Made by a program: the position numbers and the translations under genes
Notes under the pieces: generated by a model
Told to the model about the DNA's origin: nothing
Databases searched by the model: none
Seen by the model: the letters and a program-made list of their open reading frames with translations, nothing else
Shown here: positions 2,747-7,033 of the stretch, piece after piece
How positions within the stretch are numbered: position 1 is the stretch's first letter
How the letters are laid out: every line of letters begins with the position of its first letter
Assembly: GCA_963791615.1 (NCBI GenBank)
Contig: CAWBTE010000005.1
Span: forward strand, 136,033-200,032
DNA from: an uncultured Pseudomonadota bacterium
GTDB lineage: Bacteria; Pseudomonadota; Gammaproteobacteria; Steroidobacterales; Steroidobacteraceae
DNA length: 64,000 bases
Reading direction: 5' to 3'

Positions 2747-2947
2747 TCAGAATGCCGCGCCGGAACGTACGCCAAGCTTCTTCAGAATCATGGCCAGCGG
2801 GCAAAATCCGGTGAACGAAGACTGCAACAGGTTGGCGCCGACAAAGGCGGTCAACCAGTACCAGTTGGGGTGCACGTAGTGGCCCAGCGCCAGACTCACC
2901 AGAACAACTACACCCGCGAATCTCATTACGGCTTTATCGATTGTCAT
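2747..2947 (-). CDS. DUF2892 (YgaP C-terminal-like) small membrane protein
   Basis: ORF 2747..3016. Likely start is ATG 2947 (MTIDKAVMRFAGVVVLVSLALG), preceded by GAGGAAACA. It has two TM helices and the FTGFCPLAMILKKLG motif typical of DUF2892. Confidence 0.7.
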   Translation of the reverse strand: MTIDKAVMRFAGVVVLVSLALGHYVHPNWYWLTAFVGANLLQSSFTGFCPLAMILKKLGVRSGAAF

Positions 2948-3147
2948 GGCTGTTTCCTCATGTGGTTTCGAATGAGCCTGGTTGGTCAATATGGTTGATC
3001 CATATGACTGGTCCATATTGGCCCTCCCGGCTCTGTTACAAGATCAGTATCAATACCTACTGTCAGTCATGTCGCAGCGACGTCAATCAACCGCCGGGGC
3101 GGGATCGACCCGCACTGCTGCTGATCATGGATGACTGGCCGTCTTTA

Positions 3148-3165
3148 TATTAGTATTTGCTAATA
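3148..3165. promoter_or_regulatory. Inverted repeat TATTAG-N6-CTAATA in the divergent DUF2892/arsR intergenic region; candidate ArsR-family operator
   Basis: Read directly: tatTATTAGtatttgCTAATAcag at 3146-3168, about 50 nt upstream of the arsR start and inside an AT-rich patch. Confidence 0.35.
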
Positions 3166-3215
3166 CAGTCAACCCTAATGTAATATTCTGCCACTACCAA
3201 CCAACGGAGCCGACC

Positions 3216-3557
3216 ATGACCGCCCGCGCCACCGCCAAGCGCAGCAAAGCAAACAAGCCCATGGATATGGAGGACATGCTGGTGCACGCCGGTGAAGCCG
3301 CCGAATTTCTCAAGGCGCTGGCCAATGACCAGCGTCTGGCCATCCTGTGCAGCCTGCTGGACAAGCCCCTGTCTGTCGGCCAGATCAATGAGCGGGTGCA
3401 TCTCAGCCAGTCGGCCTTGTCACAACATCTGGCGGTGTTGCGTGAGCGCGAACTGGTCACGACGGAAAAGCAGGCGCAAACCGTCTATTACTCGGTGCCC
3501 AGGGGCAAGACGCGCCGCATCCTGAGCCTGCTGCATGAATGTTTCTGTGGCAGCTGA
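3216..3557 (+). CDS. ArsR/SmtB-family transcriptional repressor, BigR/SqrR/YgaV-like
   Basis: 113 aa. It has a winged-HTH core (FLKALANDQRLAILCSLLDKPLSVGQINERVHLSQSALSQHLAVLRERELV) and GGAG 7 nt upstream of the ATG. Cys in helix 2 (AILCSL) and in the C-terminal HECFCG sit at the positions used by BigR/SqrR persulfide sensors. Confidence 0.85.
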   Translation: MTARATAKRSKANKPMDMEDMLVHAGEAAEFLKALANDQRLAILCSLLDKPLSVGQINERVHLSQSALSQHLAVLRERELVTTEKQAQTVYYSVPRGKTRRILSLLHECFCGS

Positions 3558-3560
3558 ATC

Positions 3561-4580
3561 ATGCTCGCCGCTCTGGGTGCCCCAGGGTCTGTTAACCATG
3601 ATCCGATCGCTGCGACGGCGGTCAAAAGGACTCAGGACGCGGCGCACCGAGCGCGGTGTACTTAACGTACTCCAGCGAGGTGCAACAAAGTCCTGAGTCC
3701 TTTTGGCCCCGTCCCTCCGGGTTGGGCCTCTGAAAGCGCCATGCCGCGTTACTCGTCGCTTATTTGGAATGACCAAACCTCACTCCTCGCGCCTTGCCTG
3801 GCGCTTTCAGAGACTCCAACGCAGCGATCGGATCATGGTTAACAGACCCTAGTCATTGGCCTCAGTCTGGGGCTGCTGGGTTCAGGTGGATCAATTCTGA
3901 CTGTACCGGTACTGGTCTATCTGGTAGGCGAGCCGGAAAAGCTGGCCATTGCCGAATCCCTTGCCATCGTCGGCACCATTGCCGGCCTGGGCTCACTGAT
4001 GCATGCACGGGAAAAACATATCGACTGGCGCAGTGTCTGGCTGGTCGGGCCCTCGGCCATGATGGGTTCGTTTGCCGGCGCATGGCTGTCGCAGTGGCTG
4101 CGCGGTCGTGTGCAATTGCTGCTGTTCGCCGTAGTGATGCTGTTTGCAGCCTGGCGCATGTTCATGAATTCATGGAGCGGGACTGAACTGCAACCCAGCT
4201 ACTGCCGACCCTGGTGCCTGCTGGGCCTGGGAACGGGGATTGGTCTGCTGAGCGGACTGGTGGGTGTGGGAGGCGGCTTCCTGATCGTTCCTGCACTGGT
4301 GCTGCTGGGTGGACTGGCGATGCCGGTTGCGGTCGGCACCAGCCTGATGATCATCTGCCTCAGCTCATTCACCGGATTTGCCAAACATCTGCACCTGCTG
4401 CAAGCCAGCGGCACTACGCTTCACTGGCCGACACTGGGCATGTTTGTGCTGGTTGGCGCACTGGGCAGTCTCGCCAGCGTACCCATTGGAACCAGGCTGC
4501 CGCAGGTCAGACTGCAACAGACTTACAGTGTCATGGTGGTGCTGATGGCCGTATTCATTCTGTGGCACTCCTTGTCCTGA
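3561..4580 (+). pseudogene. TauE/SafE (DUF81) sulfite/anion exporter family gene, interrupted after codon ~8 by a 267-bp element
   Basis: ATG 3561 (MLAALGA..) lies 3 nt after the arsR stop. From 3852 the same frame reads VIGLSLGLLGSGGSILTVPVLVYLVGEPEKLAIAESL... through to the 193-aa track ORF (3999..4580, [15 protein letters not shown] motif). Between them, stops occur in all frames of the insert. Removing 3584-3850 gives a 250-aa ORF of typical TauE length. Confidence 0.8.
3584..3850. mobile_element. MITE-like non-autonomous element, 267 bp, perfect 31-bp terminal inverted repeats
   Basis: Left end AGGGTCTGTTAACCATGATCCGATCGCTGCG (3584-3614) is the exact reverse complement of 3820-3850. Internal arms: 3620-3638 pairs with 3690-3708 (18/19), and 3728-3741 pairs with 3799-3812 (14/14). 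Flanked by CCAG / CTAG. No credible ORF inside. Confidence 0.8.
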
Positions 4581-4588
4581 ACAGACTG

Positions 4589-7033
4589 TCAGAACTGCCA
4601 GCGATATCCTGCGTAGTAGAAGTAACGCGTGGTTTTCTGCGCGTTGATTGCGGCATCGCGCTTTGAAAGTTCGGCACCCGCTTCCAGCTCAAACTGCACC
4701 GTGCGTCTTTGCAGACCGATACGCAATGATGGCGCATACAACCACAGGGTACTGGCATCACTCTTGAACTCACGCCGGTCAATGCGCAGCTGCGGCCCGA
4801 GACGCCAGTCACTCCACACTGGCACACGACTGCTCAAGCCCAGCGAAGTCGTCGTCACCGAACCACCACTCTGCTGACGAATTCCGATGATATTGACATC
4901 CCCACTGCGCATGACGCTGGCGGCCAGCAGTTGCGCCGAGGCTATGAACTCCGGACCTTCTGCCGGAAACCCGTCCACTGCGGGAAACGCCGGGTCAATC
5001 GCCGAACCATCAGAGGGCGGCGCCGCGCCGGTTGAAATACTTTGCGTGGTAACCGACAACTGAAACCGCTCACCAATGGCTCGCGATGCAGTCAGGCTGT
5101 ACACACTGGTGTCCGGCGTACGATCCAGAGCCAGCTGCTTGATCTGTTCGTCATTGAAGGCGCTGTCAAGCGCATCCAGCGAACGCACTGGCTGGCCAAT
5201 CAGTGCATTGCGGGTGGTCACCAGCGGACTCTTGCGCTGCTCCAGATCGATATTGAGCGTCCAGCGTGCAGGCAGTTGCAGCGTACCCACCACCACAGCG
5301 CTGTTGAGCGCCTGAAAGTGCAGGTCATAGTCAAAGAAACCGATGAGTACCCGCCCGGGACGGAAATAGCGCAACTCGGCACCAACGGCCTGACGATCAA
5401 TCCTGCCTTCAAATGTCTGGTTGACCAGATAAACGCTGGGCTCCCACGCATCTGCAAACGTACCGAAATTGAATGACAGTGATTCAAACAGGCGTCTGCT
5501 GTTCAGGCCACTGCGCGCACTGTCCACCGGCATGCCAATGGTGACATCGGACGTGAAATGTGGATGCCACTGGTAACTGGCGAGCAGACCATCAAACGTT
5601 CCGAACGAGCCACTACCGGAACGATTCTGCCGGCCAAGGCTGCCATACCAGCCGCGATCACGATCCGACCACTCCACAAACGCATTGCTGACATGCACCT
5701 GATCGCCTGGACCATTCTGCAGCAAGTCCTTGTTGTAGCCGGCACTGACACGAATGCGGGTATCAGTTGCAAAACTGCGATAGCGTGCGGTCAGATCAAA
5801 ATCATTGAGCAGCGCGTGCTGGGTAATCTGGTCCTGAGTGGTGGCATCTACCGTAATGCGACTGTCATCGCGTCGATAGTACTGGGCCAGACCACCATTC
5901 AACTTCCAGACTCCCTCCTCATCATCATTGCCACCCGCTCCTGCACGTCCGGGCAACGTCGCAGTGCGCAAGGCGTTCAGGCGCTTTCTGACCCGATTGG
6001 CACGACGATCCCTGGGGAATTCACGCAGGAAAAGCTCGTACTCGGCTTGCGCATGCGCCAGTTCGCCGCTGCGTTCATGCGCGATGCCAAGCAACTCCTG
6101 CGCCTGGACGCGATACTTGCGACTGGAACGCGCCAGCAGCTTGGTCAGCAATTCGATGGCCGGCGCGTACTGCCTGCGACGAAATTGTTCATTGGCGCTG
6201 GACCACAGTGCATCGGCTTCCTTGTCGGTGATACGGGTGTCGGCAGCATCATCCGTTGTCGAACCGGCGGTGGTTTCTGATTCGAGCGTCAGATCCTGCT
6301 CATCCACCGCTTCGTCGGCAATAGCCAGCCAGGCACGCGGGTAACTATGCTGGGCAGCAAGCAAGGTACGCTCCGCGTCTTCACGCAACACGATAGGCCC
6401 GTAACGCAGGCGATACCAGCGCGCGCCGTCGATATCGACCTCAGAAGTATAGACCCGTGCACCAAGGGCATCCTGCGCCTGCCTGACTACCGTCTCCGCA
6501 AACGGCGTCAGCGATGACTCAAGATTGATGGCATACGCCGTCGCGACATCGGCAATGGGTACTTCATTGACCAGAATCCTGCCCGCCGCGCCAGCCGTTT
6601 CGCCACTGCGCAGAATGCGGATGCGCAGACCACGCTGATCATTGGTCGGCACCACCAGGAATTGTTGTGACAGACGCCAGCGGATCAGCAGTTCGGCGTC
6701 ACTGGCCAGCAGGGGTGACAGCTCGATGCTGCGCACCACGGCGGGCGCGGGTGTAACCAGCGACTCAACCCCTGAACGTGATGGACCGCAGTCACTGCCC
6801 AATGTGATTCGCACGCGCAGTTCAGCGCCCTGCTCTACCGGCGTGTGCGAGACATAGCGAACCGTGCAGGCAAAGCGGATGGTGAGGTCGTAGCGGGCGG
6901 GCGTCTCGGCAACATCGGCTTCATCGAGAACGCGTGATGGCGCCTGTGCCGATACCATCGAAAAATATCCGCATAGCAGCAACGTTGCCAGGCCAGTGAA
7001 TTGAGCAGAACTCAGATACTTCCGAGAACTCAT
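4589..7033 (-). CDS. Secreted outer-membrane protein: N-terminal domain, TPR-like segment, C-terminal beta-barrel
   Basis: ORF 4589..7057. The ATG at 7033 gives MSSRKYLSSAQFTGLATLLLCGYFSMVSAQA (signal peptide). TPR-like helices occur around YAPAIELLTKLLARSSRKYRVQAQELLGIAHERSGELAHAQAEYELFLREFP. The C-terminal ~420 aa have alternating beta-strand patterns and end YFYYAGYRWQF (aromatic terminal residue). Confidence 0.7.
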   Translation of the reverse strand: MSSRKYLSSAQFTGLATLLLCGYFSMVSAQAPSRVLDEADVAETPARYDLTIRFACTVRYVSHTPVEQGAELRVRITLGSDCGPSRSGVESLVTPAPAVVRSIELSPLLASDAELLIRWRLSQQFLVVPTNDQRGLRIRILRSGETAGAAGRILVNEVPIADVATAYAINLESSLTPFAETVVRQAQDALGARVYTSEVDIDGARWYRLRYGPIVLREDAERTLLAAQHSYPRAWLAIADEAVDEQDLTLESETTAGSTTDDAADTRITDKEADALWSSANEQFRRRQYAPAIELLTKLLARSSRKYRVQAQELLGIAHERSGELAHAQAEYELFLREFPRDRRANRVRKRLNALRTATLPGRAGAGGNDDEEGVWKLNGGLAQYYRRDDSRITVDATTQDQITQHALLNDFDLTARYRSFATDTRIRVSAGYNKDLLQNGPGDQVHVSNAFVEWSDRDRGWYGSLGRQNRSGSGSFGTFDGLLASYQWHPHFTSDVTIGMPVDSARSGLNSRRLFESLSFNFGTFADAWEPSVYLVNQTFEGRIDRQAVGAELRYFRPGRVLIGFFDYDLHFQALNSAVVVGTLQLPARWTLNIDLEQRKSPLVTTRNALIGQPVRSLDALDSAFNDEQIKQLALDRTPDTSVYSLTASRAIGERFQLSVTTQSISTGAAPPSDGSAIDPAFPAVDGFPAEGPEFIASAQLLAASVMRSGDVNIIGIRQQSGGSVTTTSLGLSSRVPVWSDWRLGPQLRIDRREFKSDASTLWLYAPSLRIGLQRRTVQFELEAGAELSKRDAAINAQKTTRYFYYAGYRWQF

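Follow-up and report, generated by a model that had tools for sequence, protein, structure and literature searches.

A miniature inverted-repeat element of a widespread fold-back family interrupts tauE in an uncultured Steroidobacteraceae bacterium

The tauE gene examined here is interrupted near its start by a 265-bp non-coding element. With a probability of about 0.85, this is a miniature inverted-repeat transposable element (MITE) that was mobilised in trans and inserted in tauE, and that belongs to a widespread family with the termini GGGYCTGTTRAC of ~0.8-kb insertion sequences (IS) of the IS5 family (IS427-group type). The analysed DNA, referred to as the window, is a stretch of 64,000 nucleotides (64 kb) from contig CAWBTE010000005.1. 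In the mechanism proposed, a transposase of such an IS, encoded elsewhere in the cell, would bind both terminal repeats. The 265-bp element would insert at a TA, probably inside a CTAG that had arisen from local polymorphism in tauE codons 8–9. The TA would be duplicated at insertion, and its left copy would later have mutated to CA. The features of the locus are the following (window coordinates):

2747–3016, minus strand: YgaP-like membrane protein gene (89-aa ORF; Pfam PF11127 YgaP-like_TM, E = 5.4e-13)
3216–3557, plus strand: arsR-family regulator gene, first of the arsR-tauE pair (113-aa ORF; Pfam HTH_5, E = 1.3e-13)
3561–3582, plus strand: tauE 5' fragment, codons 1–7 and base 1 of codon 8, left of the insertion
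3583–3584: presumed left copy of the TA target duplication, now CA (assigned from family statistics)
3584–3614, plus strand: left terminal inverted repeat, arm of helix P1, perfect 31-nt complement of 3820–3850
3585–3849, plus strand: MITE proper, 265 bp, GGGTCTGTTAACC...GGTTAACAGACCC (183 bits, E = 1.2e-55 against a profile of 69 family members)
3620–3708, plus strand: hairpin 1 (P2), one copy of the hairpin unit (arms 3620–3638/3690–3708, 18/19 paired, 95%, 51 nt between)
3705–3724, plus strand: central motif GGCCCCGTCCCTCCGGGTTG with mini-hairpin CCCG-TCCCTC-CGGG, symmetry centre of the element (exact-match pattern, at least 119 genome stretches)
3728–3812, plus strand: hairpin 2 (P3), hairpin unit in reverse-complement orientation (arms 3728–3744/3796–3812, 16/17 paired, 94%, 51 nt between)
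3820–3850, plus strand: right terminal inverted repeat, arm of helix P1, perfect 31-nt complement of 3584–3614
3850–3851: presumed right copy of the duplicated target TA, part of a CTAG (assigned from family flank statistics)
3852–4580, plus strand: tauE 3' part, codon 9 to stop, separated from its own start codon

The tauE gene begins with an ATG at 3561, 3 nt past the arsR stop, and the insertion lies in codon 8 of this TauE/SafE gene. This agrees with the original prediction, which had placed the insertion after codon 7–8. The 5' fragment and the beginning of the intact 250-aa tauE in three related contigs (L001, L003, and L004) can be aligned base by base; in two of these contigs (L003 and L004), tauE shares 99% identity with the 3' part. 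In silico removal of 3584–3850 joins ...GCC CC|A GTC ATT... and gives back the 250-aa protein that had been foreseen for this deletion; it matches Pfam TauE over residues 5–243 (E = 2.7e-45). The divergent YgaP-like gene is also found in relatives with an empty site. The layout of 2747–4580, in which a YgaP-like gene is divergent from the gene for an ArsR-family regulator followed by tauE, presumably resembles that of YgaV/YgaP- and BigR-type sulfur-stress operons. The C-terminal end of the ArsR-family regulator is CFCGS.

The reading frame from 3561 is a 34-aa ORF that ends at a TAA (3663–3665) within the element. The downstream tauE frame contains a stop at 3840–3842, and its first ATG, GTG, or TTG occurs only at 3999 (193-aa ORF). 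Given the stop after 34 codons and the lack of an in-frame start before 3999, tauE is almost certainly knocked out by the element. At best, the largest possible TauE product would be a 193-aa fragment without the first 146 residues (start at codon 147). The gene is therefore best called a pseudogene; 243 tauE codons remain 3' of the element, and arsR is untouched. TauE could still be made if the insert were tolerated or removed at expression, either through in-frame translation, as with the palindromic RPEs of Rickettsia, or through self-splicing as an intron. The length of 267 nt is a multiple of 3 and the 31-bp helix brings the junctions together, as this idea would have it. Nevertheless, its probability is negligible in view of the two in-frame stops at 3663–3665 and 3840–3842, the family lengths of 265–273 bp, which are not limited to multiples of 3, and the lack of any match to intron or ribozyme models.

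Relatives were retrieved by an exact look-up of the ArsR protein, which returned ten contigs from one MAG and metagenome assemblies; in another count, 13 other contigs encode the identical protein. All seven ArsR-identical contigs that reach the site (L001–L004, L006, L007, and L009) read from GGTGCC directly into CTGATCATTGG, with no insert, and in three of them (L001, L003, and L004) the gene immediately following arsR is an intact 250-aa tauE. The flanks of the element are 98–100% identical to the empty-site contigs on both sides. No insert is present in distant orthologues (63–79% identity; nearest named relatives in the Steroidobacteraceae), whose N-terminus, GAL[I/L/A]IGLSLG, is uninterrupted down to 63% identity in other genera. 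This comparison of orthologous arsR-tauE loci, one of the checks proposed along with the prediction, shows that the insert is missing both from contigs of 98–99.5% identity and from distant orthologues. The intact, insert-free tauE of near-identical contigs identifies the event, at the level of the sequences compared, as a recent, strain-specific insertion.

The reverse scenario, in which tauE originally contained the 267 nt and the relatives lost them, for instance through palindrome instability, is effectively refuted. Long inverted repeats are indeed prone to deletion, and the CTGATC junction of the relatives is not the exact product of removal of the element. However, the N-terminus is uninterrupted in all orthologues examined, the element holds stop codons in the tauE frame, and homologous copies occupy unrelated loci in many phyla.

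The junction CTGATC contains no TA, while excision of the element would give CCAGTC or CTAGTC; an unsampled CTAGTC allele is therefore assumed. The sequence before insertion was probably GCC CTA GTC (ALV), not the APV that results from exact excision of 3584–3850. A CTA GTC (Leu-Val) target allele among unsampled strains is plausible because 5 of the first 21 tauE nucleotides are polymorphic and orthologues vary at the affected residue (I, L, or A). These five differences were seen between window positions 3561–3581 and the contigs L001–L009, which are otherwise 98–99.5% identical, and the tauE start is thus a local hot spot of polymorphism adjoining the insertion site.

The boundaries of the element were set with the help of the family. 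Its ends read GGGYCTGTTRAC...GTYAACAGRCCC, and the immediate flanks are usually TA, often within CTAG. Most copies have the ends GGGCCTGTTAACAC...GTGTTAACAGGCCC, those from Pseudomonas and Azotobacter have GGGTCTGTTGACG, and the window copy, with GGGTCTGTTAACC, is intermediate. The left flank dinucleotide is TA in 66 and CA in nine of 82 copies; the right one is TA in 64/82. Position -3 is C in 55/82 copies and position +3 is G in 58/82. The GGG/CCC at the element ends is invariant across the family; the target duplication would accordingly comprise only the 2-bp TA, with CTAG as the preferred context. With constant GGG/CCC ends and an outer C/G that belongs to the target context, the true element covers 3585–3849 and is 265 bp long.

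The original prediction had described a 267-bp element flanked by CCAG and CTAG as a possible 4-bp duplication. The repeat coordinates and the flanking letters are correct, but the length has to be reduced to 265 bp and the presumed duplication to the 2-bp TA, with the outer C/G as target context. A 4-bp CTAG duplication was rejected, since the GGG/CCC ends are invariant while positions -3 and +3 vary independently. In the window copy, the left flank reads CA and the right one TA, so that the presumed duplication is imperfect. The dinucleotide TA is its own reverse complement, so that a direct duplication is indistinguishable from an extended inverted repeat. Inverted-symmetric variants of the flanks occur in three copies, namely CA...TG in L026 and TG...CA in L030 and L115.

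The terminal repeats 3584–3614 and 3820–3850 are complementary in 31/31 nt, with 205 nt between the arms, exactly as had been claimed, and no comparable inverted match appeared in dinucleotide-preserving shuffles of the window. The outer 13 nt of the left repeat match the ends of IS5-family IS. For the interior, the 18/19 pair named in the prediction was recovered, and the second pair, given there as 14/14, proved to be only the perfect part of a 17-nt pair (16/17). Folding of the 267 nt yielded -169.4 kcal/mol (z = -15.9 against dinucleotide shuffles), in agreement with the near-complete self-complementarity that had been noticed. Only short ORFs cross the 265–267-bp element, and no transposase is encoded in it or elsewhere in the window, which bears out the view that it had to be mobilised in trans.

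If arsR and the element were transcribed together, RNase III might plausibly cleave at the perfect 31-bp duplex. A 15-nt inverted match (14/15) exists between the arsR 3' end (3512–3526) and an arm of hairpin 1 (3631–3645); it is probably due to chance, and pairing in a read-through transcript could occur.

The terminal 19-mer of the window copy had no exact match in genome and metagenome collections; a single viral match, located inside a phage gene, was dismissed as chance. By blastn against plasmids, homologous elements of ~260 bp were detected in Azotobacter chroococcum, and they have the central motif GGCCCCGTCCCTnCGGGTTG in common with the window copy. The central 20-mer was found in at least 119 stretches of species-representative genomes, which by our own count from the listing correspond to ~80 assemblies. 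At least about 100 homologous copies were recovered, mostly 265–275 bp long and of one layout, and terminal repeats were recognized in 95 of them. The element is therefore no orphan, and the homologous copies in many genomes identify it as a member of a widespread family.

The hosts most frequently represented among the matches listed are Acidobacteriaceae/Terracidiphilus. Gammaproteobacterial hosts include Pseudomonas, Azotobacter, Chromatiales, Sedimenticolaceae, Steroidobacteraceae, Solimonas, Nevskia, and Microbulbifer; Thiobacillus, Verrucomicrobiae, and an Oceanithermus MAG are single cases. Some MAGs harbour several copies per genome, and the homologous copies occupy unrelated loci. The closest relatives of the window copy, 77–87% identical, come from ten metagenome contigs, retrieved via a subfamily 21-mer, and from a Pseudomonadota MAG (L105); three of the ten are large contigs from one sample. 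A search of the 64-kb window with the profile of 69 copies returned the window copy only (183 bits), with no second copy.

A few copies lack one hairpin (~180 bp) and some carry small nested insertions. In Acidobacteriaceae, copies of 310–356 bp contain a ~40-nt palindromic repeat (GGGGTCCCCAGYGACAGGTCTTCGTCRCTGGGGTGGAAATC and its complement) nested in the hairpins (L017, L046, L055, L086, L088, L107, L108, L110, L113, L117, and L123), which looks like a separate small mobile repeat. Copies with AGAGCCTGTCTGTGAATAAATC ends lie between two genes of an apparent operon in L016 (reverse strand, ~6150–6430) and L056; in L016, the stop codon TAA of the upstream ORF is seemingly built from the TA flank and the first base of the element.

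The family is unannotated in the RefSeq plasmid records inspected and is absent from Rfam. Literature searches based on its terminal sequences, on Azotobacter or Acidobacteria MITEs, and on MITEs connected with IS427 found no description. Within the resources searched, the family thus appears to be undescribed, while the insertion into tauE is in itself an ordinary event. Two deletion primers for lpg2920-21 of Legionella pneumophila end in TTTAGGGTCTGTTGAC (primer list in PMC12457610), which suggests that a family member or an IS with such ends adjoins this toxin-antitoxin locus.

The consensus fold of 69 copies consists of a long helix P1, formed by the terminal repeats, the hairpins P2 and P3, and a mini-hairpin between them, a predicted 4-bp helix at columns 141–154 of alignment A3. 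Family loci were fetched by means of the central motif, so its invariance is a matter of construction and provides no covariation evidence for the mini-hairpin. Over the 69 copies, 94.6% of cells were paired, versus 75% in column shuffles and ~40% with the partners slid, and changes on both sides were seen in 63/79 pairs. Compensatory changes affected 13/17 pairs of the lower stem of P2 and 18/22 pairs of P3 across the family. The inner half of P1 is wholly different between copies and complementary within each.

The two hairpins are related to each other. When the reverse complement of P3 was aligned with P2 of other copies, scores of 67–91 were obtained; those of shuffles did not exceed 24, and those in forward orientation did not exceed 23. 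P2 and P3 have the motifs CAAGGnnCGAGGAG...AGCGACGAGnnACGC in common, and P3 is the reverse complement of the P2 unit; a terminal repeat plus hairpin unit is thus present twice in the element, as inverted copies on the two sides of the central motif. Elements with this interior also exist with at least five other terminal sequences, among them GGGTGTATCGACATATAC and AGAGCCTGTCTGTGAATAAATC. The family profile gave no match in the loci carrying the IS described below. Since its interior has no similarity to IS interiors, the MITE is no simple internal-deletion derivative; as judged from these alignments, the interior consists of one hairpin unit in two inverted copies and is not what remains of a deleted transposase gene. 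Because of this inverted duplication, a single strand of either polarity is predicted to fold into a multi-arm junction made up of the terminal-repeat helix, two long hairpins, and the 4-bp mini-hairpin.

The hairpin unit has been kept, with compensatory changes, from Acidobacteriota to Gammaproteobacteria. The complementarity of the three long helices is preserved even in very divergent copies, which suggests that the fold-back structure matters for propagation, with selection on transposition competence, or that it is maintained by palindrome-correcting replication errors or template switching. As a more far-reaching idea, which we put forward tentatively and consider rather unlikely, the conserved fold-back interior would be the functional core of mobile elements of a new class, in which a structure of the DNA, such as a cruciform or four-way junction, or of an RNA is needed for mobilisation or is beneficial, and which pass between different IS5-family helpers by exchange of the outer 14 nt.

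Strong covariation in three helices across phyla could also be taken as the mark of a functional structured RNA (or single-stranded DNA) gene that hitch-hikes on transposon ends, the insertion in tauE being incidental. The association of one interior with at least five terminal sequences and the conserved unpaired motifs CAAGG..GAGGAG / AGCGACGAG point in the same direction. Several results oppose this reading and make it quite unlikely. The two strands are equally stable in the 69 copies: the difference MFE(+) minus MFE(-) is 0.09 kcal/mol on average, and the plus strand is the more stable one in 31/69. Mismatches show no strand preference either, with 245 G:T (G:U) versus 223 A:C in a pair list pooled from both strands. 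An apparent 2.8:1 excess of G:U over A:C, which would have indicated a strand-specific RNA, was an artefact of pair prediction on one strand and was gone upon pooling.

The orientation of family members relative to neighbouring genes is unbiased, as assessed with crude stop-to-stop ORFs, by which calls of 'inside gene' are unreliable. Rfam 15 covariance models had no match at E <= 1 in 3000–4600 of the window, and nothing reached the gathering score in 16 loci with family members. A scan of 3100–4300 revealed no terminator-like sites, no promoter on the tauE strand, and a single weak promoter-like match on the minus strand; the earlier suggestion that the element may terminate or re-prime downstream transcription thus received no support. 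In addition, the two hairpins are inverted copies of one unit, which is a symmetry at the DNA level. Equal folding of the strands, balanced mismatches, unbiased orientation, and the lack of an Rfam match all place the symmetry of the element, as far as it can be read from these comparisons, at the level of DNA. The preferred reading remains that of a MITE mobilised in trans.

Candidate helper elements were found only by scanning viral contigs for the terminal 16-mer (TAGGGCCTGTTAACAC). Ten elements with TAGGGCCTGTTAACAC ends and TA on both sides were detected; their sizes are 812–819 bp, apart from one of 1037 bp. The 812–819-bp elements are bounded by TA|GGGCCTGTTAACA...TGTTAACAGGCCC|TA and contain two overlapping ORFs (e.g., L143), which match NF033580 transpos_IS5_3, PF13340, and PF01609 (L141). 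A further IS of 862 bp, with TA|GGGTCTGTTGACGTT ends, has a 249-aa IS5-family ORF. The MITE family and the IS5-family IS thus have 13–16 terminal nt in common in two different end classes, so that the search for a parent IS, which had been advised together with the prediction, turned up candidates in other organisms. On the Terracidiphilus contig L082, a MITE fragment and the end of such an IS occur together. Trans-frame transposases with two ORFs are known from the IS427 group (IS5 family), and a TA duplication from ISPsp10 (PMC4133298); IS1301 uses AYTAG as a target, with TA duplication (PMC2193550). Given the same ends, the same TA flanks, and the IS5-family transposases, the 812–862-bp elements of IS427-group type are likely to be the helpers acting in trans.

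Two of the viral elements deserve separate mention. The 1037-bp element (L139, 2252–3288) is a copy of the 819-bp IS with ~218 bp extra. A 293-bp element with GGGTCTGTTGACGTT-type ends (L170, 5501–5793) has the N-terminal coding part of an IS5-family transposase as its interior; in contrast to the hairpin-module family, this is a miniature IS of the classical kind that arises by deletion.

A tblastn search of the 64-kb window with the cognate IS transposase returned nothing convincing; mobilisation must therefore have occurred in trans, either by a transposase encoded at another place in the genome or at an earlier time. No TA-flanked elements of 0.6–3.5 kb with the exact terminal 9-mer were present in the 8-kb loci, no half-elements split by a transposase gene were found, and scans of viral sequences for the end classes GGGTGTATCGACATA and GAGCCTRTCYGTGAATAAAT gave no matches.

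A TA duplication and a CTAG context are also classic for IS630, and mobilisation by an IS630-family (Tc1/mariner-like) transposase, rather than by one of the IS5/IS427 group, was considered. Two Azotobacter plasmids each have an annotated IS630-family IS directly next to a family member; the two elements meet exactly at a TA common to both, at opposite ends of the MITE in the two cases. However, the terminal repeats of the abutting IS630 copy (GTGTTATGACAC...) are unrelated to the MITE ends, and the 13–16 terminal nt are instead shared with IS5-family IS, in two end classes. The adjacency is equally well explained by IS630 targeting CCCTAG at the MITE border, and an IS630-type mobilisation of the element is very improbable. 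The IS630-family IS in question lie at 1604–2790 of L012 and 1644–2832 of L013, both Azotobacter chroococcum plasmids, at the left end of the MITE in one and at the right end in the other. This arrangement suggests that IS630 preferentially targets the CCCTAG at the edge of the MITE.

Among known systems, the IS427 group (IS1301, ISPsp10) resembles the MITE family in the GGGYCTGTTRAC termini of the NF033580-type IS of 812–862 bp, in a TA duplication, presumed for the MITE family, and in a preference for (A)YTAG/CTAG (PMC2193550; PMC4133298). The window element differs in being 265 bp long and without a transposase; its interior is dissimilar, unlike that of the deletion-derived 293-bp element of L170.

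The Correia elements (NEMIS/CREE) of Neisseria, RUP, and ERIC are small, non-coding, and present in many copies, with terminal inverted repeats and TA duplication. Correia-type MITEs form long hairpins when transcribed and are located inside or beside genes. The family described here is likewise small, non-coding, multi-copy, TA-flanked, and capable of forming long hairpins, but it has no sequence similarity to these elements, the window element is about twice as long, and its interior is an inverted duplication of a ~90-nt hairpin unit with a multi-arm junction. Furthermore, the family is distributed across several phyla, not one genus, and no outward promoter or IHF site was identified in the window element.

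Tourist/mPing-type MITEs are non-autonomous partners of IS5-like DDE transposases (PIF/Harbinger, relatives of IS5); their terminal repeats begin with GGCC/GGGCC..GT, and they insert at T(N)A-type sites. They differ from the window family in being eukaryotic, in their 3-bp duplication (TAA/TTA), and in their unrelated interiors. Fold-back or REPIN-like repeats display a similar near-total self-complementarity, with arm pairing kept by compensatory change. REPINs, however, are mobilised by RAYT (IS200-like) proteins and have neither TA duplications nor DDE-type terminal repeats, whereas the ends of the window element match a DDE IS family.

For the locus analysed here, the appropriate annotation is a tauE pseudogene disrupted by a mobile element instead of a short ORF followed by a truncated gene. 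The affected gene encodes a TauE/SafE-type anion exporter and is paired with that of an ArsR-type regulator, and the insertion also provides a strain-level marker. The family is abundant in soil Acidobacteriaceae and in many Gammaproteobacteria. Its recognition would improve gene calling at several hundred loci. An internally duplicated fold-back interior that is conserved among different end classes and phyla makes the family a lead of moderate interest, and it may serve as a tractable system for studying what causes a MITE to retain so elaborate an interior when the ends bound by its transposase are exchanged.
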